Shown: piece by piece, positions 3,256 through 40,900 of the stretch
Layout: each line of letters opens with the position of its first letter
Position numbering within the stretch: position 1 is the first letter of the stretch
NCBI GenBank assembly: GCA_963749155.1
Contig: CAVVLO010000003.1
Coordinates: 128,001 to 192,000, forward strand
Source of the DNA: an uncultured Armatimonadia bacterium
Lineage (GTDB): Bacteria > Armatimonadota > Zipacnadia > CAVVLO01
Reading direction: 5' to 3'
DNA: 64,000 nt
The notes under the pieces: model-generated
Database searches by the model: none
Told to the model about the DNA's origin: nothing
Seen by the model: the letters and a program-made list of their open reading frames with translations, nothing else
Made by a program: the position numbers and the translations under genes

Positions 3256-4779
3256 CTCGCTGAAGTCAGACCTGGTTCGACCTGGGGAGCAGCCGGAGCG
3301 GGTCTCCTCGCTGCTTCGTCAGCTTCCGCCAGGATCCGGCTGCGCTCTGCAACCTGCAAGCAGACGGCTGACCACGCGAAGGGCAGAAAGATCGTAGGAT
3401 AATCGAGGCTTCCGCCGATCAGCCAGGCGGCAACCCACAGCCAGAGGTTAAGCCTGAAGGCATAGCAGATACCAACAAGCTCCGAGTAAGCATGGGTAGA
3501 GTTACTGATCGCTTTTTTGAATAGAAAATGCGCATACCAGATCAGAAGAATAAAGAGCCCAAACCCCAGAAGCCCCAAGATCTGCCGCGAGTCAGAAACA
3601 GGTTGTGCGGCTCGCCCCCCACCTCGGTAGCGCCAGCCTTCGCTTGCATACTCTCCAAGCTGAAGCGCACATTGCCGTATCCTATCCCCATATCGGGTGA
3701 TTAAGAAATACGAGCCAGGTCTGCTGGTTTACAGACAAGCGATAATGCTCATATGTGGGGCTGAAAGTGGCGCTCATCCTGTGACCTGTTGCAGCTCGGT
3801 ATTCTGGGGGCAGTAAGAAAGAACGCCAGCGTGCCGATTAGCGCCAAGCGCCAGGTAGGCACCAAGAAGCTTGCTGAAGCTTTTGCCTGAGTAGTTCCAG
3901 AGCAACCAGAGCATCGCCATGGCAGCAAAGAATATCTGCGCCCTGGCAAAAGTCGCAAGCAAACCCATTACCATAACGGTAGCCAGCAGGAAGCCCCAGG
4001 TTGGCATCCTCTTGCGCCCAATCAGAAGCAGCCCAAGCAGGAGGAATAGCCCAAGCGCTATCAGGAAAGCAGCGCCCGCCGGATGCTTGAAGGTCCCAAA
4101 AGCGCGCGGGATGGGTCCGAAGTAATAACCCCACGGCACCCCTTCTGCAGTAGGAAGGTGCCGCTGCAAGTAAGCGATCGGCCCGAGGACTGGCTGCACG
4201 ATACACATAAAGGCCTGGATAGACGCAATCACGACCAGGAGCCAGGAGACAAGTACGAGCCGCGCGCGCGTATTGATAAAAGCCTCAAACGAATAGGCAA
4301 GCGCGAAGGCCTGGAACAAGGGCATAACTGCCCTGAGCGCCTCGTGCCTGGGTTGTCGCGCCTAACGCGGAAAGGGTCGCCATAAAAATGAAAGAGAGCA
4401 TCACCCATTGAAGTGGAGATACAAAACGTTGCTTGCGCACGGCTTTTATGCCAATAGCCAGGCCCATCGAGACGAAGGCCAGCAGTCCAATGGCATAAAG
4501 CGGGCCCCACGCAGGAAGCCAGTCAAGGGGGATGAGGAGGATCTCGGCCAAAACTACGTAGAAAGGACTTGCTGCCACAAGCAGCGCGCCCATCCCTGCG
4601 CCAACCAGAGTGGTGTTCACCTTGCCGGGCTCCACTATGAGCCAGGCGGTGAAAAGTGAGCCCAGTATAATTGTTACTATGAGGAAGAGAGGCAGATAGG
4701 GCGATCTTCCCTGGACTGCGGCCACGTTGCGCTTGATCAAACGCTTCCCCTCCGGCACTCGGTAACTCGATTTTAACAC
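3252..4779 (-). CDS. O-antigen ligase/Wzy_C family membrane protein, frameshifted
   Basis: Fragments 4285-4779, 3774-4325, 3252-3578. RAFGTFKHP and ATFARA motifs; GIGYGN (~3672-3689) and GEPHNLFL (~3593-3616) in the intervening frame. Confidence 0.8.
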
Positions 4780-4905
4780 ACCCTCTTTCTGCCGGCATCC
4801 CTGGAAGGCCTTTTTTTAGGAAGCCTTTGATGGATTATGACCGCAGGATATTTCCTCTTTCTGGTGAATCTAAGCCTGGACTAGCTGCTCTTCAAGGAGG
4901 CCTGG

Positions 4906-6771
4906 ATGCCCAACTGGACTTGCCCTGCGGCTCATCCCTTCCTGGTCGCCAACCTGGCCCAGCTGGAAGCCGCGCGCCGCAAACTGGCAGAAGGCTTCGA
5001 GCCGGTTGCCAACGCCCTTGCCGAACTGGAGAAGCTCTCTGGCCAGGCCGCCGACCTCGAGCTACCTGGCTTCGATCACTCCTGGTTCGCCGGCAAGACG
5101 CGCGCCGACTGGGCAGCCATCTATCCTGAAGTTTTTCGCGACACCTCGCAGGGGCCAGGTCGCTATGCGATGCCCGCCCTTGGCGCCGCTCTCCACTGGG
5201 CGCTGACAGAAGAAGCTACCAGCCTCGCGGCGGCGAAGCGCATTTTGCTCCATATGCAGGCTGAATATCCCTTCGACATCGAGCACTACGATGTGGGGAT
5301 GAACTACACTGGTTTCTGCATCCCCCTGCTGTGGGCATATGACCTGCTTTATGAGACTTTTACCCCTACCGAGAGAGGCTTGCTGGACGAATTTTTCGCG
5401 CGCGCCTATTCGGCTATCGCCGAGAACGATGCTCTCTGGGTGCGCGAGGGCATCGGAGGCGCCTACAACAACCATTACGCCTGGCACAAGTTCTTCATCG
5501 CCAGCTACGGCGCCTTCTACGGGCGGGGAGAACTGATCGACTTCGCCCTCACCAGCCCGATGGGCGTTGACGACTTTATGGCGCACGGCCTGGTGGACGA
5601 TGGCCTGTGGCTTGAGAGCGCCACCGGCTACAACTTCGTCGCCGCCCACGCTCTGCTGCCGCTTGCCTGGACACTCCGCAATGCCGGCTGGCCGGAGGAC
5701 CTCTTCGAGCGTGATTTCGGACGCGGCAAACGGCTGAGACAGCTCTTCGACGCCGCGCTGTACTTGCTCTTTCCCGATGGCTCTATGCCGGCGCTTGGCG
5801 ACTGTTATGGCCGCCTGCCCACCCTCCCTGGCGACCAGTACGAGTACGCCTGGGCAATCTGGAAAGCGCCCGAATACGCCTGGGTCGTCAGTCAGCGTCC
5901 GCGGCGGTACTCTGGCTGGGGCCTGCTGCCTGCCCTGTTCGTCGCAGAGCCTGTCTCTGGTCTGGCAGAGCCCCCTGTTGGCACCCGCAACTGGCCCGAA
6001 CACGGGCTGACGCTGCTCGCGAACAATGCGCCAGGCCCGTACTTCTCCCCCACCACGGCGGCCTGTTTCATCACCTGGGGCTACAGTGGCATCCACGGTC
6101 ACGCCGACAAACTCGGCTTCGAGCTTGCGGTCGGCAAACGCCGCTGGCTCGCTGATGCGGAAGCCACCTCGCCTGGCCACAGCTTCAGCAGTGACGTGCA
6201 AGGCCAGCTCAATCGCACGAGCCTCCCCCACAGCCTCGTGACAGTGGACCATAAGCCCCAGCGCGGCCTGCGCGACAATCTCACCGTGGTCGAACTCGAT
6301 GAAGTCCGCCGGCGCCTGGTGCTGCGCGATGAGGGAGCGCTGTATGAGGGCGTGACCCAGCAGCGCGCCTTCCAGCTCGGAGAGACTGCTCTGACTGACC
6401 TCTACGAGCTTTCAGCTGATACCGACCACACTTTCGAATACCAGCTCGTTTTCTGGCCGGGGACAGAAATCACCCTTCCGATGCCTCTCTCCCCCGCCCC
6501 GCCCATCAAGGCCGGCGTGGAATACACCTGGTTGCGCGACCTGGCCAGCGCGCCTCTGCCGGCAGGGACGTTCAGCTTCGAGGCGAAGCAGGAAGAGGCC
6601 ACGCTGAAAGTTGAGATGGTCGCACCAGAGGGCTCCGAGGTGCTACTCGGCAGCCTGCCACGAACGCAGGACTGGCAGCCGCCTCACTTCCCGCTGCTGC
6701 TGGTACGCTACAGAGGGAAGCAGGCCCGGTTCGAGGTCACCTTTACCTGGGCCAAACCAACTGGCAGTTGA
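4906..6771 (+). CDS. Heparinase II/III / alginate lyase family polysaccharide lyase
   Basis: 621 aa; NNHYAW, DDGLWLESATGY, PDGSMPALGD, HGHADKLGFEL, HSLVTVD; AAGGAGG RBS. Confidence 0.8.
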   Translation: MPNWTCPAAHPFLVANLAQLEAARRKLAEGFEPVANALAELEKLSGQAADLELPGFDHSWFAGKTRADWAAIYPEVFRDTSQGPGRYAMPALGAALHWALTEEATSLAAAKRILLHMQAEYPFDIEHYDVGMNYTGFCIPLLWAYDLLYETFTPTERGLLDEFFARAYSAIAENDALWVREGIGGAYNNHYAWHKFFIASYGAFYGRGELIDFALTSPMGVDDFMAHGLVDDGLWLESATGYNFVAAHALLPLAWTLRNAGWPEDLFERDFGRGKRLRQLFDAALYLLFPDGSMPALGDCYGRLPTLPGDQYEYAWAIWKAPEYAWVVSQRPRRYSGWGLLPALFVAEPVSGLAEPPVGTRNWPEHGLTLLANNAPGPYFSPTTAACFITWGYSGIHGHADKLGFELAVGKRRWLADAEATSPGHSFSSDVQGQLNRTSLPHSLVTVDHKPQRGLRDNLTVVELDEVRRRLVLRDEGALYEGVTQQRAFQLGETALTDLYELSADTDHTFEYQLVFWPGTEITLPMPLSPAPPIKAGVEYTWLRDLASAPLPAGTFSFEAKQEEATLKVEMVAPEGSEVLLGSLPRTQDWQPPHFPLLLVRYRGKQARFEVTFTWAKPTGS

Positions 6772-33784: not shown

Positions 33785-34441
33785 TCACTCACGCCTGAAT
33801 AACGCCGCCACGAAGCCTGCGGTTTCATCGCAGCCTGCGCGCGGCGGCTCGGTCTCCAGTCGCTCTAACTCCGGCCCCTGATAGAGCGTCGAGGCGCAGC
33901 GCTCCAGCCGCAGCCCGGCGTTTGCGGCAAAAGCCGTAAGCTGCTCCAGGCTGAAGAAGGTCGCCTTCGAGTAGTAGTGATGGCCTGCTGCGCCTTTGGC
34001 TGCATACAGCTTGCCCCAGGCGCTGCCCGCAGGGACGAAGCCCAGTATCACCGCGCCTCCCGGCTGGGTGACGCGGGCGGCTTCTTGCAACAAAGCTTCG
34101 GGCTCCTCACAAAAACAGATAGTGACGATAACCAGCACTGCTCCGAAGACCTCATCGCCAAAAGGCAAAGTTTCACCCATCGCCTGGACCACTTTCAGAT
34201 TGCGTTTTACACTGAACTGAAGCGCGCCTCGCGCCGGATCAAGCCCAGCGTCCACTCCTAGTGCTTCACCGAAACGCCCAGTCCCCACGCCGATCTCGAG
34301 CCAGGGCCGCGCAAGGCCGCTGGTGAGCTGGCCCAGGCAGGCAAGCTCCAACTCGAAGAGCACTCGGCCTTCAGGCGTCTCAAACCAGGCGTCATATCGC
34401 GCTGCTTCGTTATCGAAAAGGTCACTGCTCCTTGTACTCAT
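33785..34441 (-). CDS. Class I SAM-dependent methyltransferase
   Basis: YDAWF, LEIGVGTGRF, GETLPF, VTICF. Confidence 0.9.
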   Translation of the reverse strand: MSTRSSDLFDNEAARYDAWFETPEGRVLFELELACLGQLTSGLARPWLEIGVGTGRFGEALGVDAGLDPARGALQFSVKRNLKVVQAMGETLPFGDEVFGAVLVIVTICFCEEPEALLQEAARVTQPGGAVILGFVPAGSAWGKLYAAKGAAGHHYYSKATFFSLEQLTAFAANAGLRLERCASTLYQGPELERLETEPPRAGCDETAGFVAALFRRE

Positions 34442-34594: not shown

Positions 34595-35485
34595 ATGAAA
34601 GCATCACTGGAATGTCTGCCCTGTTTTGTGCGTCAGTCGCTCGATGCCATCGCGATGGCTACCGACGATGAGCAGCTTCGCCTGCAATTTTTGCGCGAGG
34701 TGCTTGGCTGGCTCAGTGAATGGGAACTGGAGCTCTCGCCCCCCATCATGGGCCAGCTTGTGCATCGCCGGGTGCGCGAGATTACCGGCCAGGCCGATCC
34801 TTACCGTAAATCAAAACAGGCCCACACTCAACTGGCTCTGGCTCTGCTTCCTGCGCTTCGAGAGCGCGTAGCGGCCTCCGACAACCGGCTCGAGACCGCT
34901 TTGAGACTGGCGGTCGCCGGCAATGCCATTGACCTGGGAGTGAAATCGTCCATCAGCCTTGCCGAAGTGCAGGTCGCGCTCGAAGAAGCCCTCCAGGCCC
35001 CTCTGGGTGGCGATCTGGCTGCTTTTCAACGCGCCACAAGTGAGGCTGCAACCCTCCTCTATCTGGCCGATAACGCTGGAGAACTCGTTTTCGACCGCTT
35101 GCTCATCGAGGAACTTGCCGCGCTGGGCGGGCAGATAACGGTGGCAGTCAGAGGCGCGCCTGTAATCAACGACGCCACTCTGCTCGAGGCGCGCGAAAGC
35201 GGCATTTTCGAGGTAGCCAAAGTTGTTGACAACGGTTCGGATGCCCCAGGCACTCTGCTTGAGGAGACCAGCCCAGCTTTCCAGCGGGCTTTTGCCGAGG
35301 CGGACTTGATTATCGCCAAGGGCCAGGGCAATTTCGAGTCTCTAAGCGAGGTCGAGGCGCCGCTGTTCTTCCTGCTAAAAGCCAAATGTCCCGTAATAGC
35401 CGGCCATCTGGGACAGTCCGTTGGCTCTTATGTGCTGGCGCCCTCGCCCTGGTGGGCCAGAGCCTCGGTAGCGCAGGCGCTCTGA
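34595..35485 (+). CDS. DUF89/ARMT1-like damage-control phosphatase
   Basis: CLPC, DPY, GNAID, DNAGE, PVINDAT, KGQGNFESL, KAKCPVIA. Confidence 0.9.
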   Translation: MKASLECLPCFVRQSLDAIAMATDDEQLRLQFLREVLGWLSEWELELSPPIMGQLVHRRVREITGQADPYRKSKQAHTQLALALLPALRERVAASDNRLETALRLAVAGNAIDLGVKSSISLAEVQVALEEALQAPLGGDLAAFQRATSEAATLLYLADNAGELVFDRLLIEELAALGGQITVAVRGAPVINDATLLEARESGIFEVAKVVDNGSDAPGTLLEETSPAFQRAFAEADLIIAKGQGNFESLSEVEAPLFFLLKAKCPVIAGHLGQSVGSYVLAPSPWWARASVAQAL

Positions 35486-35510
35486 GAAGCTACTGCCCTC
35501 CTGGCATCCG

Positions 35511-36116
35511 CTAGTCCTGCTCAGCCTGCTCGAGCGAGACTGCCCGGTCGAAGAGTTTTAGCAAATGGTCGCGGATATCCTCCGGCCAGTCGGAAATCAG
35601 CTTGGCAAGAGGGCTTCTGCTGCGCGCATAGAGGGCCCGAGAGGCCTCTTCGAAGTCCGGCAGATCGCCCGCCATCGCCCACATAAACTTGCCTGCCGCC
35701 TCGAGCGCCAGTCTGGAGCGCTCTTTGGCGGGCTGAGAGCGCATCGCCTGTTCTACCAGCTTGCGCAGGGCGGCGGACTTCCCGCTTGGCTGGCCTTCGA
35801 GCCATTCCCAGTGCCGCGGAAGCAAGGACACTTCGCGACTGGTCACTCCCAGCCTGGGACGACCAGGGCCGAAGCGCTCAGGATTTGCGTCTTGCTGGAC
35901 AAAACGCGCATCATCGGCCAGGCGCGCAAGTACTTCCTCTGGGGCGCCGCGGAAATCAAAATCCAGCAGCCTGCCTGTCGAATCATCGAAGACCAGCACC
36001 GGCGCCTGCTCGCCCTCATCAATCGCAAGCTTGGCTGCGAGTACCGTCTCGCCCAGGCTTCCCGAGCCAACGAGCTGGGTGCCGGCAAAGGCCACATAGG
36101 TCTGCTCTGCGCTCAT
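35511..36116 (-). CDS. DUF2239 family protein (putative RHH-type DNA-binding protein)
   Basis: VLVFDDSTGR..DFDFRG and GPGRPRLGVTSREVSLLPRHWEWL..QPSG.SAALRKLV, MAGDLPDFEEASRALY. Confidence 0.85.
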   Translation of the reverse strand: MSAEQTYVAFAGTQLVGSGSLGETVLAAKLAIDEGEQAPVLVFDDSTGRLLDFDFRGAPEEVLARLADDARFVQQDANPERFGPGRPRLGVTSREVSLLPRHWEWLEGQPSGKSAALRKLVEQAMRSQPAKERSRLALEAAGKFMWAMAGDLPDFEEASRALYARSRSPLAKLISDWPEDIRDHLLKLFDRAVSLEQAEQD

Positions 36117-36129
36117 TAGTTTCTCCCGA

Positions 36130-36201
36130 CCACTTTGATTGGGAGCAATATTACCCAGTATAAATACAATTAGTCAATTATTACTGGGTAAAAAAGCGCA
36201 C
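36130..36201 (-). promoter_or_regulatory. Promoter/operator cassette A; 72-bp direct repeat with 37914-37986
   Basis: Inverted TTACCCAGTA sites at 36151-36160 and 36182-36191; minus-strand TTGACT-N18-TAATAT. Confidence 0.8.
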
Positions 36202-36283
36202 GGAGAGGGAGAGGGGCAACTTGCTCCTGGCTAGGCAAGCCCTCTCGGCTTGTTAGCCAAAGGGCGACGCCCCAGCCACCAGG

Positions 36284-36868
36284 TCAATTCTCCTCGATAT
36301 CGAACAAGAAGGTGCAAGGATGTTTCCCGCCGCTACTCAGCGCAGAGGAGCGCACTGTGCAGGAGAGTCGACAACCCAGTGCGATTTGCAGGTGGTGCTT
36401 TACATGCCCGCCGCAGCAATAACAATAGGTGATGGAGACCGGCTCCTTTGCTTTACTAAGGCAGACGCAGCCGTAGGTTGCTTGCCCCTCGGGGGCAAAG
36501 CGGACGAGGATGCGGCCGTCAGCCTCTCTGGTGACACTGTGGCCGAAGACGAACCGGGTTTCGTTCGCTGCCGCGATGCGTTCCTCAAGTGTTGCGTGCT
36601 CCTTTGCGATTGCCTTACTGAGCTGCAACCTTTTCCCGCCGAGACAACAAGCGCACTTCTCGAGCACAGCGTGTCGGGTCGCGGCATCGAGCTGCGCATC
36701 CATGCGGCCCATTGCCTCCCGCATCCAGGCTGCCTTATGCTCCGGCGACGCGCCCCGTAAAAGCAACTCGCCACCAGCGAGGAGCTGGTCTCTTAGCTCT
36801 TCTGCCACTCCTAATGCTTCCAGGCTGTTCGCCAGTTGGCGAACCCGTCCATGCTCATATTCCGGCAT
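36284..36868 (-). CDS. Cys-rich hypothetical protein (DUF6144/V4R-like)
   Basis: CACC, CVC, TYCYCCGGH, SALSSGG..PCTF; AGGAGG RBS. Confidence 0.7.
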   Translation of the reverse strand: MPEYEHGRVRQLANSLEALGVAEELRDQLLAGGELLLRGASPEHKAAWMREAMGRMDAQLDAATRHAVLEKCACCLGGKRLQLSKAIAKEHATLEERIAAANETRFVFGHSVTREADGRILVRFAPEGQATYGCVCLSKAKEPVSITYCYCCGGHVKHHLQIALGCRLSCTVRSSALSSGGKHPCTFLFDIEEN

Positions 36869-36883
36869 ACAAATCGCCCTCCT

Positions 36884-37010
36884 GCCGGCAAGTATAGGCT
36901 TGATAAGGCCACTTATCGATGTTCTTTCCTCACCCTCTACTCCTGACTACTTCACCTGGAAGCACTACTAATCCTTCTGAAAAAGTTGACAATATTTACT
37001 GGGTAATATT
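36884..37010 (-). promoter_or_regulatory. Promoter/operator cassette B
   Basis: TTACCCAGTA at 36997-37006 followed 4 nt later by TTGTCA; 36884-36970 aligns without gaps to 37851-37937; TCGATA-N17-TATACT. Confidence 0.75.
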
Positions 37011-37036
37011 AGCTGCGGCGTCAGCTAAAAAAAAGC

Positions 37037-37783
37037 CTACTGAGCTGCTTTCTCTGCCACGACCATCAGTTCGAACTCATCCAGTTTGATGGCGCGCTTG
37101 CCCCACTCACCCGCGGTGCCACCCCACAGGTGCAGGACGGAAAAGCCCGCGAGCTGGAAGAGCAGCTTGAGTTCGGTGGGCGTGAAGGAGCGCTCTCGCA
37201 ATAGGAGCGGGGGCTCTCCTTCACCAAGTGGGAATTCGGTGACAGTGCTCATCGTCAGTGGATCGAATAGCCCCTGCTCGACGTCTTCGTCCGAGCGCTC
37301 CCGGATCATCTTGAAGGCACTGAGCGCGTTGAAGACCGCCTTGCCGCCCGGCTTCAGGCAGCCGTGGAGGTTGCGCAGGATGGCGAGTGGTTGCTCGATG
37401 GGGTCGTCGGTCGCGCCCAGCAAGCCGAAGGAGCCCTCGCACAGGCATATAGCGGCGTCGAATTGCTTGTCCAGCGCGAAACTGGTCGCGTCGGCCTGAA
37501 TCCACTGGACTTCGACCCCTGCGTCCTCGGCTTTGGCGCGCGCCTGGGAGAGCATCCCGGAGGAGATGTCCAGGCCCGTAACCGCTAAGCCACGCTTCGC
37601 GAGCTCGACGGAGTGGCGACCTGTGCCACAACCGACGTCCAGAAGAGAAGCACCAGGGGCAAGCTGGAGCAGGTGAAGCAGAAACTCCACCTCGTTTGCC
37701 GTGTTTTGGGTGAAGCAGAGCGCGTCGTATTCGGGCGCTTCGATGTCGTGGAACTGCTGCCAGGCGTTGTTGCTAGTTTCCAT
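37037..37783 (-). CDS. Class I SAM-dependent methyltransferase
   Basis: LLDVGCGTGRH, VTGLDIS, FDAAICLCEG, LKPGG. Confidence 0.9.
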   Translation of the reverse strand: METSNNAWQQFHDIEAPEYDALCFTQNTANEVEFLLHLLQLAPGASLLDVGCGTGRHSVELAKRGLAVTGLDISSGMLSQARAKAEDAGVEVQWIQADATSFALDKQFDAAICLCEGSFGLLGATDDPIEQPLAILRNLHGCLKPGGKAVFNALSAFKMIRERSDEDVEQGLFDPLTMSTVTEFPLGEGEPPLLLRERSFTPTELKLLFQLAGFSVLHLWGGTAGEWGKRAIKLDEFELMVVAEKAAQ

Positions 37784-37850
37784 AGGGAGTCCTCTTCTCG
37801 TCCAGAGCTAACCTCACAAGCACGGGCAATCTATATCAGAGACGGCCGCG

Positions 37851-37986
37851 GCCGGCAAGTATAGGCTTGGTAAATCCCTTTATCGATCTTCTTTCCTCAT
37901 CCTGGACTCTCTGCCACTTTGATTGGGAGCAATATTACCCAGTATAAATACCAATAAGACTATTATTACTGGGTAAAAAAGCGCAC
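37851..37986 (-). promoter_or_regulatory. Promoter/operator cassette C (composite of A-like and B-like parts)
   Basis: TTACCCAGTA sites at 37935-37944 and 37967-37976; identical blocks of 38 bp and 25 bp shared with cassette A. Confidence 0.8.
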
Positions 37987-40900
37987 AGACAGCTCTCCCT
38001 CATGCCAGTACCAGCAGGGGGTGCGCGATTCAAGCGCTGCCTCAAGCCCGTTTGCCAGGATCGCCTGCCTGCCCTGCACCTCAACAGCTACTGGCTTCTG
38101 GGGCCAGCGCCCGCTGAAGACATAATCGCCTGCTGGCAGGTCTACCACCAGTTCGACCGCGCCTGGCTTGTTTTCTCTCAGCCTTGCCGGCCCCTGCCCC
38201 TGGGGCATATGGAAGACGCTTTGAGCGGGTACCTGGCCATTATATTCCGGATACGCGAAATTGGCCGTCTTCGGGTCGTAAAGCTCATGGGCAGCACAAT
38301 AAGCATAGGTCGAGTCCACGAGCCTGAGGGCGCGCTGCTGTAACTGGGTATCTCCCTTCACGACAGCCCACTCGAAAAGGCGACGACCGAGGGCCACCCA
38401 GTTGAACTCGAGCCCCCAGGGCTGCTCTTTTTCGCCAACCAGCAGCAACCCATCGCGCTCGAAGAGTCTGGAAGCAATCCAGCCCTCGATACAGGCATCC
38501 GCCGCCTGCTTGTACTGCTCCTCGCCCGTGTCGAGATAGTATTCTCTGAGAGCCGAGAGCGAGGCCAGGGTGGTGTGCAGGCCATACCAGCTATCTACGC
38601 CCCACCCGCCCTCGGTATTGGCGTCCAGCCAGACGGCACAGAAGCCGCCCTCTTGTTCGGGGCGTTGATTTTGCTGGACAAGAAACTCCATCGCGCGCTT
38701 GCCGAAGGCCAGATACTCCTCTTTGCCTGTGAAGCGGTAAAGCCTGAGCAACTGGAAGGCCAGTTCCGCGACGTTTTCGGCCCTTACCGGGTAGTCACGG
38801 TAGATAAAGGCTCCCTCTGGCCCAAGTGGATTATGGGCAAGCCGCGAGAAGGGCGCCTCCAGGCTGAAAGGACTGACCTGGCAGACATACCGCGCCGAAT
38901 GTTCAGCCCGCGCCAGGGCGCTGACATCGCCCGTGGCCTCAAAAAGCACAAGCTCGTTGCGCAGGCCGGTCAGCCCGGCCGAACAGAAATCCGACGCCAG
39001 ACCGTAAAGTTCGGCCCGCCGCCAGTAGTCGCCGCAAGGCGTCAGCAGTTCCTCGGCCTGGAAATTGCCGACGTTGCTCATAAACTCAAGCAGTCGCTCA
39101 TCACCTGTCAGCCGATACCAGTCCTGCATTATGTCGAGGGTCGGACTTTCAAAAATCCAGTGATGATCGAACTCCAGCAGCGCATCGCCCAGGCCGTGGA
39201 AGCCCCTGCCAAGCCGCGCCAGGTTACGCGCCCAACTGTAGCTCGAGTCCTGACTCGACCAGACGCGCCAGGCCTCAGAAGCCCTTACGAGCAGCAGGTC
39301 AGACCGCTCCTCGGGCTGGCGTTTGCCCTCTGAACCCGGCAGCCAGGGCCATTGGCCCTCGATGTTTACTGTTGCGGGCCAGGATTCAACCTGAAGCTCA
39401 GGCCTTCTGGCCAGGGCGCGTTGCCAGCGGCTTGCCAACCGGCCTGAGTGGAACAGGCCCTTCGACCACCTGGATTTGCGCCGGCGTCGGAAGCACGAGG
39501 AAAGCCCAGTTGGCGAGCTCCTCAGCGCTAGTAAGGGTAAGCAAACCGGAGCGATACACCTCGGGCAGATGACTGATTGCGAAGCGCTGGGCGGCCGCAA
39601 GCTGGGTAGCCAGGCCGGCTTCGCCCTTGCCGGCGGGCACCAGGATGAAGGCGAATCCGGTTGGCGAGCTGACCTTGGCGGCTTTGAATCTGAAAGCCAG
39701 TTTGCGCCCCTCGGCCGTTAGCTCGGAGATATTGCCTGTTAGGGGCATCGCCAGGAGTTCAGTGTCATCCCAAAGCAGGCGCTCGGGCAGGCCGGCGCCA
39801 GTCGCTTCAAAGGGCTGGTTGAAGTTGAACTGGTAGGAGAACTCGACATCCCTCAGCGCGCCAGCCTGCGGGCGCAGGATAAAGGCATACAGCAGGGCGT
39901 TCTGGCCAATCGGGAAGACATAATTGACGCACAGCCACTCGGGCTGCTCTCGCTCCTCGGTAAAGACGCGGATCCACTGGTAGAGGGACTCCTCAGCGTT
40001 CATATGAGTGCCGCGCACCGAATAGCACAGGCGTAGGTCGCCGTTGCGCGCAAGCTTTGCCGTGCGGTTATTCCAGTCAAGCTGGCCAGAACTGTTTTTG
40101 AGGATATCTACCGCCTTGCCTTGCTCCGGCTTGACGAGCAACGTGCTCTCGCCAAAGGAGCCCAAATCTCCAAGCAGCACCTTGTGGAGTGGCGCCCCTC
40201 CGATTACTCCGCGCCAAAAACTGAATTGATCGCGCTGGAGGGTCGTCTCCACCTCGGGCACAGGCCAGGGGGTATCCCACGGCGCCCCGGCAAGCAGACT
40301 GACGACGTTTGCGGCCGTGTCGGCAGGCTCGACGCAAGGGCCAAGATAGCCAAGCTGACCAGCGCCTACCTTCACCAGCGCGGCATCAACGAGGCGCTCG
40401 CCCTCTTCGGGGTGATATTCGAGCAGGGAGAGATACTCGTTATTCCAGTCCTTCAGCAGTTGCAGCCTGATGCCTCGCTCTGCGCTGACAGGATGGAGCC
40501 CAAGCCGCTTCCCAAGCCTGGACTCCCAGTTGGAAGTGTGAGGCGCCAGGCCCGAGGTATGAGGCTCGATATTGCAGTTTGCGACGGTTATCCACTCATC
40601 CCAGATACGCTGCAGGTCCAGATCAGTTATCTCGCTAGCCAGCGGGCCGGGCTGCGAGATACGTAGTGGCAGCCCTTGGCCAACCCAGATAAAGCGCGCC
40701 CCCTTAATCAGCAGCTCCTCCAGCGGGATGGAGCGGCGCGTTGGGCCTTGCCACCAGGAGGTCGGGGGAAGACAGTCCACCCCCATATAGGGCAGCGTGT
40801 AGAGTCGCGAATGGTCGTAGATTTCCCCATCGCCGTCAGGGTCCACGAGGACATCGGGGGCCGCATTGCCTTCATGCGCGACAATAATCAGCGTATAAGC

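Follow-up and report, generated by a model that had tools for sequence, protein, structure and literature searches.

A putative ribbon-helix-helix autorepressor of the DUF2239 family and the duplication of its operator-promoter module in an Armatimonadota genome

Organization of the DUF2239 Locus

The window analyzed here is the whole 64,000-nucleotide stretch from an uncultured Armatimonadia bacterium (contig CAVVLO010000003.1, positions 128,001 to 192,000), and the subject of this work is a gene within it that encodes a DUF2239 protein, together with a short motif that is repeated in front of this gene and of the next two genes. The exact 10-mer TTACCCAGTA occurs five times in the window, at 36151(+), 36182(-), 36997(-), 37935(+) and 37967(-), exactly where a preliminary description of this DNA had placed it, and these sites precede three consecutive minus-strand genes coding for DUF2239, DUF6144 and a class-I S-adenosylmethionine (SAM) methyltransferase. 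When one mismatch was allowed, 10 matches were found in the window versus 1.25 +/- 1.09 in 100 dinucleotide-preserving shuffles of it, none of which reached 10 (0/100). The whole assembly (4.17 Mb in 7 contigs, 59-61% G+C) contains 12 exact copies, 5 of them within this 1.8 kb. The genes are the following.

35511..36116, minus strand: DUF2239 gene, 201 aa (open reading frame (ORF); PF09998; AlphaFold 2 (AF2) model with a predicted local distance difference test score (pLDDT) of 83)
36284..36868, minus strand: DUF6144 gene, 194 aa, Cys-rich (ORF; Pfam match)
37037..37783, minus strand: class-I SAM-dependent methyltransferase, 248 aa (domain matches)

The DUF2239 protein matches PF09998 with 231.1 bits (cut-off 25; E 1.1e-68), its residues 6-188 covering positions 1-181 of the 182 in the profile. 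The Pfam match of the DUF6144 protein is above the gathering score (32 bits versus a cut-off of 28.8; E 1.5e-7), and the third gene product is recognized by the Rossmann-type models Methyltransf_25 (74.7 bits) and Methyltransf_11 (68.3 bits), with every NCBIfam match falling below its own cut-off and no specific subfamily or equivalog being reached.

On the minus strand, the upstream region of DUF2239 (region A) reads TTACCCAGTAA-TAA-TTGACT-18 nt-TAATAT, that of DUF6144 (region B) reads TTACCCAGTAA-ATA-TTGTCA, and that of the methyltransferase gene (region C) reads TTACCCAGTAA-TAA-TAGTCT-19 nt-TAATAT. A promoter scan run independently also lists promoter A as TTGACT-18-TAATAT. It had been noticed previously that a 10-mer site ends 4 nt before a -35-like hexamer in all three regions and that the second, inverted site overlaps the -10 hexamer in A and C, and both observations were confirmed, the former on the minus strand. 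The elements of the three regions, in which we name the sites as candidate operators, are the following.

36123..36207, minus strand: module copy A (self-alignment)
36181..36191, minus strand: operator A1, TTACCCAGTAA, 3 nt upstream of the -35 hexamer; homologous to site 1 of the conserved pair described below
36172..36177, minus strand: -35 hexamer TTGACT of the DUF2239 promoter (sequence and promoter scan)
36151..36161, plus strand: operator A2, TTACCCAGTAT on the plus strand and ATACTGGGTAA on the minus strand; overlaps the -10 hexamer; homologous to conserved site 2
36148..36153, minus strand: -10 hexamer TAATAT of the DUF2239 promoter, 18-nt spacer (promoter scan)
36884..37006, minus strand: module copy B, consisting of a shared downstream segment and a partly decayed module (self-alignment)
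36996..37006, minus strand: operator B1, TTACCCAGTAA, followed by ATA and the -35-like TTGTCA (36987-36992)
36969..36979, minus strand: decayed second site of module B, 4/11 positions kept (alignment)
36891..36919, minus strand: promoter-like element TCGATA-17-TATACT upstream of DUF6144, in the segment common to B and C (promoter scan)
37851..37992, minus strand: module copy C, consisting of a full module and the segment shared with B (self-alignment)
37966..37976, minus strand: operator C1, TTACCCAGTAA, followed by TAA and the -35-like TAGTCT (37957-37962)
37935..37945, plus strand: operator C2, TTACCCAGTAT on the plus strand; overlaps the -10 hexamer TAATAT (37932-37937), 19-nt spacer
37858..37886, minus strand: promoter-like element TCGATA-17-TATACT upstream of the methyltransferase gene (promoter scan)

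Their alignment shows that one promoter module is present in three paralogous copies, one in each intergenic region. Regions A (36123-36207) and C (37907-37992) share 88-94% identity over 73-85 bp (94.5% over 73 nt), and regions B (36884-37006) and C (37851-37976) share 76-88% identity, with 88% over 49 nt at the second promoter-like element. The flanks of copy B have diverged to 60-79% identity, and site B1 is still intact at 11/11 positions. Sites 1 and 2 in the window are the same 11-mer in mirror orientation, and each of them keeps one perfect half-site, the outer one. The promoter-like elements TCGATA-17-TATACT, which score 9/12 each, lie about 85-120 nt downstream of the operator sites in B and C. 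Because the five sites descend from one duplicated module, they are not independent; their number reflects duplication and adds little, and the function of the sites was therefore argued from a comparison across phyla.

The segment shared by B and C was also considered as a riboswitch or leader, a possibility that was discarded on finding that its folding is no better than that of shuffled sequences (z -1.13 and -0.65). A search of Rfam over 35000-39000 at E up to 1 returned two sub-threshold chance matches only.

A Paired Palindrome Is Conserved in the Promoters of DUF2239 Genes

The comparison covered 80 DUF2239 loci, those with the highest similarity among at least 583 relatives; more distant members may therefore differ. 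They come from Myxococcota, Acidobacteriota, Planctomycetota, Deinococcota, Alpha-, Beta- and Gammaproteobacteria, Armatimonadota, Hydrogenedentota, Melainabacteria and others. Gene starts and neighbors were assigned by a heuristic start choice and simple ORF calling, 150 nt were printed upstream of each gene, and a site was counted when it lay no more than 200 nt ahead of the start and differed from TTACCCGGGTAA at no more than 2 positions.

Almost all of the 80 loci show the same arrangement, in which one copy of the palindrome TTACCCGGGTAA, surrounded by A/T-rich sequence, lies 2 nt ahead of TTGACA, and a second copy further on provides, with its last three bases, the beginning of a TAATAT- or TATAAT-like -10 hexamer. 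At least one site was present in 71 of the 80 loci and at least two in 40, and 112 of the 120 motif matches in the 622 kb of loci fell within the DUF2239 upstream windows. A pair spaced by 26-29 bp was found in 68 of the 80 loci (26 bp, 5; 27 bp, 22; 28 bp, 30; 29 bp, 11), and the expectation that a related TAC..GTA or ACCCnGGT-like motif would lie upstream of other DUF2239 genes was thereby strongly borne out. In 53 of these 68 pairs a hexamer within one mismatch of TTGACA starts 2 nt past site 1, and in 46 of them position 10 of site 2 is the first base of a TAnnnT hexamer, with an implied -35/-10 spacer of 15-18 nt. Position counts showed that the A/T flanks of the operator are conserved as well. 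The same paired architecture is present on the megaplasmid of Ralstonia solanacearum and on an Eleftheria plasmid. Distant genomes thus share a cis element that keeps a constant place in the DUF2239 promoter. In 34 of the 64 loci with a usable start, the predicted start codon is no more than 13 nt away from site 2, which suggests leaderless transcripts at many DUF2239 loci.

The window differs from this pattern in that its sites are of 11 bp and the -35 hexamer is separated from the site by TAA, one base more than the TA of the family. This 11-bp variant is no assembly slip, because an independent metagenome contig (X2, record 14) spans 35831-36202 without gaps. In the proposed DNA-binding segment of the window protein (see below), no residue stands out against the family alignments.

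The conserved pair in its own promoter supports the proposal of the preliminary description that DUF2239 is an autoregulating transcription factor, and on the strength of this comparison DUF2239 is very probably an autoregulatory DNA binder.

With a 19-mer site-plus--35 pattern at up to 3 mismatches, one extra site off the gene's own promoter was found in the 80 loci; it lies in an alphaproteobacterial locus (L070, 3060-3078, minus strand), where a near-consensus site fused to TATAAT is located about 920 bp from DUF2239 and directly upstream of a 133-aa ORF.

The Paired Motif Follows the DUF2239 Gene

In five whole genomes scanned at up to one mismatch, pairs in A/T-rich flanks were found only at the DUF2239 promoter. 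The totals of the 12-mer were at or below those of a reversed-pattern control in three of the five genomes and above them in the other two (G043, 8 versus 1; G045, 4 versus 1). Among 15 stretches fetched across the five genomes, which do not represent all matches, those not belonging to DUF2239 were all single and lacked the A/T-rich context. The low-GC genome G080 contains many matches, but these lie inside coding regions, and it has no extra paired sites. In one class represented by 81 genomes, DUF2239 is present in 11. Nine of these 11 carriers have a match to a 17-mer version of the site ahead of the gene, within 100 nt in 8 and at 471 nt in 1, and the two carriers without a 17-mer match contain gene fragments only. 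Twelve of the 70 non-carrier genomes have scattered matches at control level, and none of the 70 has a pair spaced by 26-29 bp.

In a genome-wide scan of the assembly studied here, matches to the 11-mer (up to one mismatch) with A/T-rich flanks comprise the sites of the locus and one orphan at C5:475335, and the matches to the canonical 12-mer, including one exact copy at C1:695189, fall inside long ORFs. The orphan belongs to the only other fragment of the module in the genome, 20 identical bases at C5:475332.

Because the motif follows the gene across phyla and occurs essentially nowhere else in a genome, DUF2239 is taken as the binder of the palindromes; an element that tracks a patchily distributed gene in this way would most simply be the binding site of the gene product itself. 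The palindromes could otherwise be bound by a different conserved factor, or be a special promoter element, with DUF2239 being merely the regulated gene. That sequence profiles place DUF2239 in no DNA-binding family is in favor of this alternative, but it would require the factor to accompany DUF2239 in more than 10 phyla and yet to have essentially one target in the five scanned genomes, and the motif tracks the patchy distribution of the gene (9/11 carriers versus no pair in the 70 non-carriers). The motif moreover appears to have arrived with the gene in a lineage whose 40 sampled class relatives lack DUF2239, and the protein contains a unit that, in models, resembles a ribbon-helix-helix (RHH) domain. 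We therefore regard a different binder as extremely unlikely.

DUF2239 was found in 0 of the 40 relatives of the same class. Homologs of DUF6144 with 56-65% identity are present in 4 of these 40, and there is one more, partial, with 50% identity over residues 53-137; at the four full-length loci, which were inspected, neither the module nor the methyltransferase gene is adjacent. An order of events in which DUF2239 was imported with its own promoter, followed by local copying of the module, would fit these data.

A Putative RHH Unit within the DUF2239 Protein

The DUF2239 family is large, as 7,237 of 8,000 scored candidates (90%-identity clusters) were relatives in one search, the best with 61% identity. 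Among 14 well-known control genomes, it is present in Caulobacter vibrioides and Deinococcus radiodurans. An alignment of 38 members contains 39 invariant columns. In the full-length AF2 model (pLDDT 83), an alpha/beta domain (residues 1-73) is followed by a low-confidence stretch (74-95), by two helices (100-107 and 113-127) and by a four-helix bundle (128-201). The segment of interest is the following.

35712..35876, minus strand: proposed RHH DNA-binding unit, residues 81-135 (invariant columns, sub-model and structural neighbors)

Its layout consists of a GPGRP arm, a putative beta-strand (REVSLL), helix A (100-107), a G-x-S turn and helix B (113-127), and it contains the invariant residues G83, G85, R86, P87, R94, E95, L98, L99, P100, R101, H102, W103, G112 and S114. 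A G-x-S/T/N turn at the start of helix B is a motif of RHH proteins, and G112-x-S114 fits it; both residues are invariant in the 38-member alignment and in one of 62 sequences, and they sit between the two helices. The GPGRP arm resembles an AT-hook-like minor-groove arm, and an invariant arm of this kind, preceding the strand, would be well matched to the conserved A/T flanks of the operator.

Residues 81-135 were modeled alone with 62 sequences cut from the loci (pLDDT 75.6), and the resulting model shows an extended N terminus followed by the same two helices (100-107 and 113-127). Compared with 48,161 PDB representative chains, it reached Z >=2 with only 87, and the top 50 neighbors (Z 2.7-4.8, 40-51 aligned residues) are almost all RHH proteins, four of which carry RHH in their titles. 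Among the Z values are those of CopA_SO (4.8, 44 aligned residues), omega (4.6), ORF56 (4.6), AmrZ (4.5), the RHH domain of PutA (4.5), Arc (4.1), ParD2 (4.0) and NikR (3.9), and further RHH neighbors include ArtA, TacA, SvtR, PrpA, ParG, TraM, RelB, DinJ and others. A strand/helix A/helix B unit of about 45 residues is thus recognizable at the level of structural neighbors, with Z up to 4.8 only. Other searches with the models returned less: Foldseek against PDB gave nothing for the full model or for the 81-135 sub-model, VIA-align of the full model gave only generic helical bundles on residues 127-201 (Z up to 7.7), and the ESM Atlas gave no usable match for residues 80-130 or 1-75. Short stand-alone homologs of residues 80-135 provided no bridge to named RHH families, and the 13 short PF09998 proteins found (72-109 aa) are most likely fragments. 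On the basis of the sub-model and its neighbors, we consider an RHH fold of DUF2239 probable.

Proposed Mechanism and Control of the Neighboring Genes

Taken together, these results make it likely, in our judgment, that DUF2239 is an RHH autorepressor whose operator-promoter has been duplicated in this genome, plausibly recruiting the methyltransferase gene. According to this explanation, DUF2239 dimers would bind two palindromic operator copies (of the type TTACCCGGGTAA in the family and, here, of the 11-bp variant TTACCCAGTAA), one of which abuts the -35 hexamer whereas the other overlaps the -10 hexamer, so that their occupancy would exclude RNA polymerase. A signal sensed by the conserved N-terminal domain or by the C-terminal helical bundle would then release DUF2239 from the operator. 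The whole operator-promoter module has been duplicated in this genome, with a complete copy at the methyltransferase gene and a half-decayed one at DUF6144. Binding, repression, the formation of dimers or tetramers, the co-regulation of the neighbors and the nature of the signal are all steps that we infer.

The preliminary description had DUF2239 control both neighbors. For the methyltransferase gene this is plausible, with a full module that has a weak -35 hexamer and a 19-nt spacer, and since a complete module copy precedes the gene it is probably co-regulated, the balance inclining slightly toward control by DUF2239. The supposed regulon is a triplicated promoter module rather than a set of independent operators. 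Control of DUF6144 by DUF2239 is uncertain, because in the half-decayed copy that precedes this gene only one site is intact, the -10 hexamer has decayed and another promoter-like element is present, and we regard such control as doubtful.

Besides the common origin of the five sites mentioned above, several findings weigh against the explanation proposed here, and they concern both the protein and the regulon. With respect to the protein, the Z scores of the structural neighbors of residues 81-135 do not exceed 4.8, which is low on an absolute scale, and the monomer models lack a formed beta-strand. Sequence profiles do not support the RHH domain that structural neighbors of residues 81-135 suggest: Pfam at E up to 10 gave no RHH family in any of the 38 members (38/38), a PDB sequence-profile search of DUF2239 gave two chance-level matches only, and hhalign against 21 NikR-type RHH domains gave a probability of 8% (P 0.004), aligning helix B only. 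With respect to the regulon, a second paired module is absent from the other 80 loci and from five whole genomes, and therefore a multi-gene regulon is not a family trait. Promoter C has a poor -35 hexamer (TAGTCT) and a 19-nt spacer, promoter B lacks the second site and has a poor -10, and the elements TCGATA-17-TATACT in B and C could drive both genes independently of the operator.

The latter findings are also those that favor autoregulation alone, in which modules B and C would be relics of a segmental duplication, TCGATA-17-TATACT would drive the methyltransferase and DUF6144 genes, and there would be no regulon. The two elements (36919->36891 and 37886->37858) do lie in the best-conserved segment of B and C. 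However, site B1 is intact at 11/11 positions in a copy that is otherwise 60-79% identical, which we estimate to be about 2-8% likely under neutral decay, and copy C keeps both sites and the -10 hexamer, besides its 94.5% identity to A over 73 nt. Moreover, a repressor bound upstream could still block read-through as a roadblock, or act by looping. Autoregulation alone is thus an unlikely alternative, if one to be taken seriously.

It could also be envisaged that DUF2239, on binding the sites, activates transcription or both activates and represses it; it might, for instance, activate the TCGATA-17-TATACT promoters in regions B and C from upstream. AmrZ and some other RHH proteins both activate and repress, and the sites in B and C are centered near -86 to -120 of those promoters. 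But sites near -90 and -120 are remote for an activator that acts directly, and in 68 of the 80 loci the two sites are arranged around the -35 hexamer and over the -10 hexamer of the DUF2239 promoter, which is classic repressor geometry. We consider activation highly unlikely.

Under the autorepressor explanation, an orphan family acquires a concrete proposed function, that of an RHH autorepressor with a defined operator and promoter architecture. It is unusual for a local regulator that its operator is nearly identical in groups as far apart as Deinococcota and Proteobacteria, and this would make the DUF2239-operator pair attractive as a module for structural work and synthetic biology, and the triplicated module may be a clean natural example of regulon growth by promoter duplication.

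Comparison with Known Regulators

The closest parallels are the small RHH autorepressors of the MetJ/Arc superfamily (Arc, Mnt, CopG/ORF56, omega and AmrZ), since such proteins top the list of structural neighbors of residues 81-135. DUF2239 shares with them a G-x-S interhelix turn and repeated or palindromic operators over its own promoter. It differs in having no sequence-profile match, in the internal location of its RHH unit, between a 73-residue alpha/beta domain and a 75-residue four-helix bundle, and in its operator, whose copies are 26-29 bp apart rather than adjacent subsites and are almost invariant across phyla. A joining of the RHH unit to additional domains is also seen in NikR and PutA, whose RHH chains are among the structural neighbors; unlike these two proteins, in which the RHH domain is N-terminal, DUF2239 has an extra domain that precedes it. 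No metal-binding or enzyme motif was recognized in DUF2239 itself.

The resemblance to a BrnA-type domain, suggested previously, received no support. Like RHH type II antitoxins (ParD, RelB, BrnA, TacA), DUF2239 has an RHH-like unit, an autoregulated promoter and a GRP-containing N-terminal arm; unlike them, it is much larger, with about 200 aa and two extra conserved domains. Since there is no adjacent conserved toxin gene, no Pfam antitoxin family and no PADLOC match, a BrnA-type or other type II antitoxin was rejected.

The neighbors described in the next section provide a functional analogy with local repressors of efflux or detoxification, such as those of the TetR family located beside pumps, from which DUF2239 would differ in being an RHH and not a helix-turn-helix protein and in having highly variable partner genes.

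Neighbors and Fusion Partners of DUF2239 in Other Genomes

The neighbors across the 80 loci are heterogeneous, many DUF2239 genes stand alone, and no recurrent small partner gene was found beside DUF2239 in these loci. Neither PADLOC nor PHROGs gave a match to a defense-system or phage family. A MATE efflux gene lies closely downstream of DUF2239 in 7 of 31 same-strand downstream neighbors; these cases are not independent, because all of them are from Alphaproteobacteria. In addition, on the Ralstonia megaplasmid a MATE gene overlaps the stop codon of DUF2239. Passages of three articles consulted on a possible identity of the latter gene with the published dinF (PMC10782650, PMC3413399 and PMC4916378) give no locus information. 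A divergent GST gene is found in 7 of 34 upstream neighbors, in the same alphaproteobacterial group as the MATE cases. The loci concerned are the following.

L035, L048, L061, L070, L072, L076, L082, and L139 at 3992-6003 (Ralstonia megaplasmid): DUF2239 followed or overlapped by a MATE gene
L048, L070, L072, L076, L079, L082: divergent GST gene upstream of DUF2239, largely overlapping the MATE group

Among 29 longer relatives (P0134-P0162), a complete DUF2239 is found N-terminal to an amidase (14), an APH-like kinase (10), SnoaL (2), DinB_2 (1) or ACT (1) domain, the domain order being confirmed on the rescanned proteins only. These fusions recall PutA (RHH plus enzyme) and NikR (RHH plus ACT-like domain).

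The partners hint at small-molecule detoxification or efflux, which goes some way toward the detoxification response that had been suggested for this locus, as a hint only. The repeated association with efflux and modifying enzymes suggests a xenobiotic or stress response that may have gone unrecognized. More tentatively, DUF2239 might be a portable regulator-plus-promoter cassette, spread horizontally over more than 10 phyla and gating a variable small-molecule-handling cargo in response to one common signal. The cassette would possibly combine the RHH repressor with an almost invariant 12-bp palindrome in a consensus sigma-70 promoter, often leaderless, and its cargo might comprise MATE pumps, GST, amidases, APH-like kinases, DinB_2 and SnoaL and, in the genome studied here, the methyltransferase and the Cys-rich protein. 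If so, this genome would show regulon growth in progress via module copying.

A text search found no paper on the DUF2239 family or its operator in the library covered, and the matches to the operator words appear unrelated, as judged from the titles and the beginnings of abstracts of those listed.

Additional Observations

A homolog of DUF2239 with 38% identity is present in two records of Acinetobacter phage MD-2021a (H13 and H14), about 1.4 kb or less from the end of the record.

The orphan site of this genome (C5:475335-475378) consists of TTACCCAGTAA and 9 more identical bases, and a direct second copy, CTACCCAGTAA, lies 33 bp downstream. It sits in a 124-bp gap between convergent genes, beside a terminator-like hairpin and with no gene downstream.

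A DNA contig of run X2 (depth 4, with 36 letters on the shorter side) joins position 36202 directly to 37988. The junction skips 1785 bp, exactly the DUF6144 and methyltransferase cassette between copies A and C, and the cassette itself is also present in run X2 (record 15). The junction may be a population variant that arose by direct-repeat recombination, or an assembly shortcut. Two RNA-library contigs (X19 and X20), which carry no information on starts, strand or level, cover only 36161-36845 and a 35-nt piece.

Beyond the 3' end of DUF2239 lie a gene for an ARMT1-like damage-control phosphatase (34595-35485, plus strand) and one for a second class-I methyltransferase (33785-34441, minus strand), both devoid of the operator. 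On the other side of the locus, the stop codon of a long ORF (37966-39600, minus strand) falls inside operator C1, and the last 6 or so codons of this ORF correspond to a sequence that is also found, non-coding, in module copy A (36181-36201).

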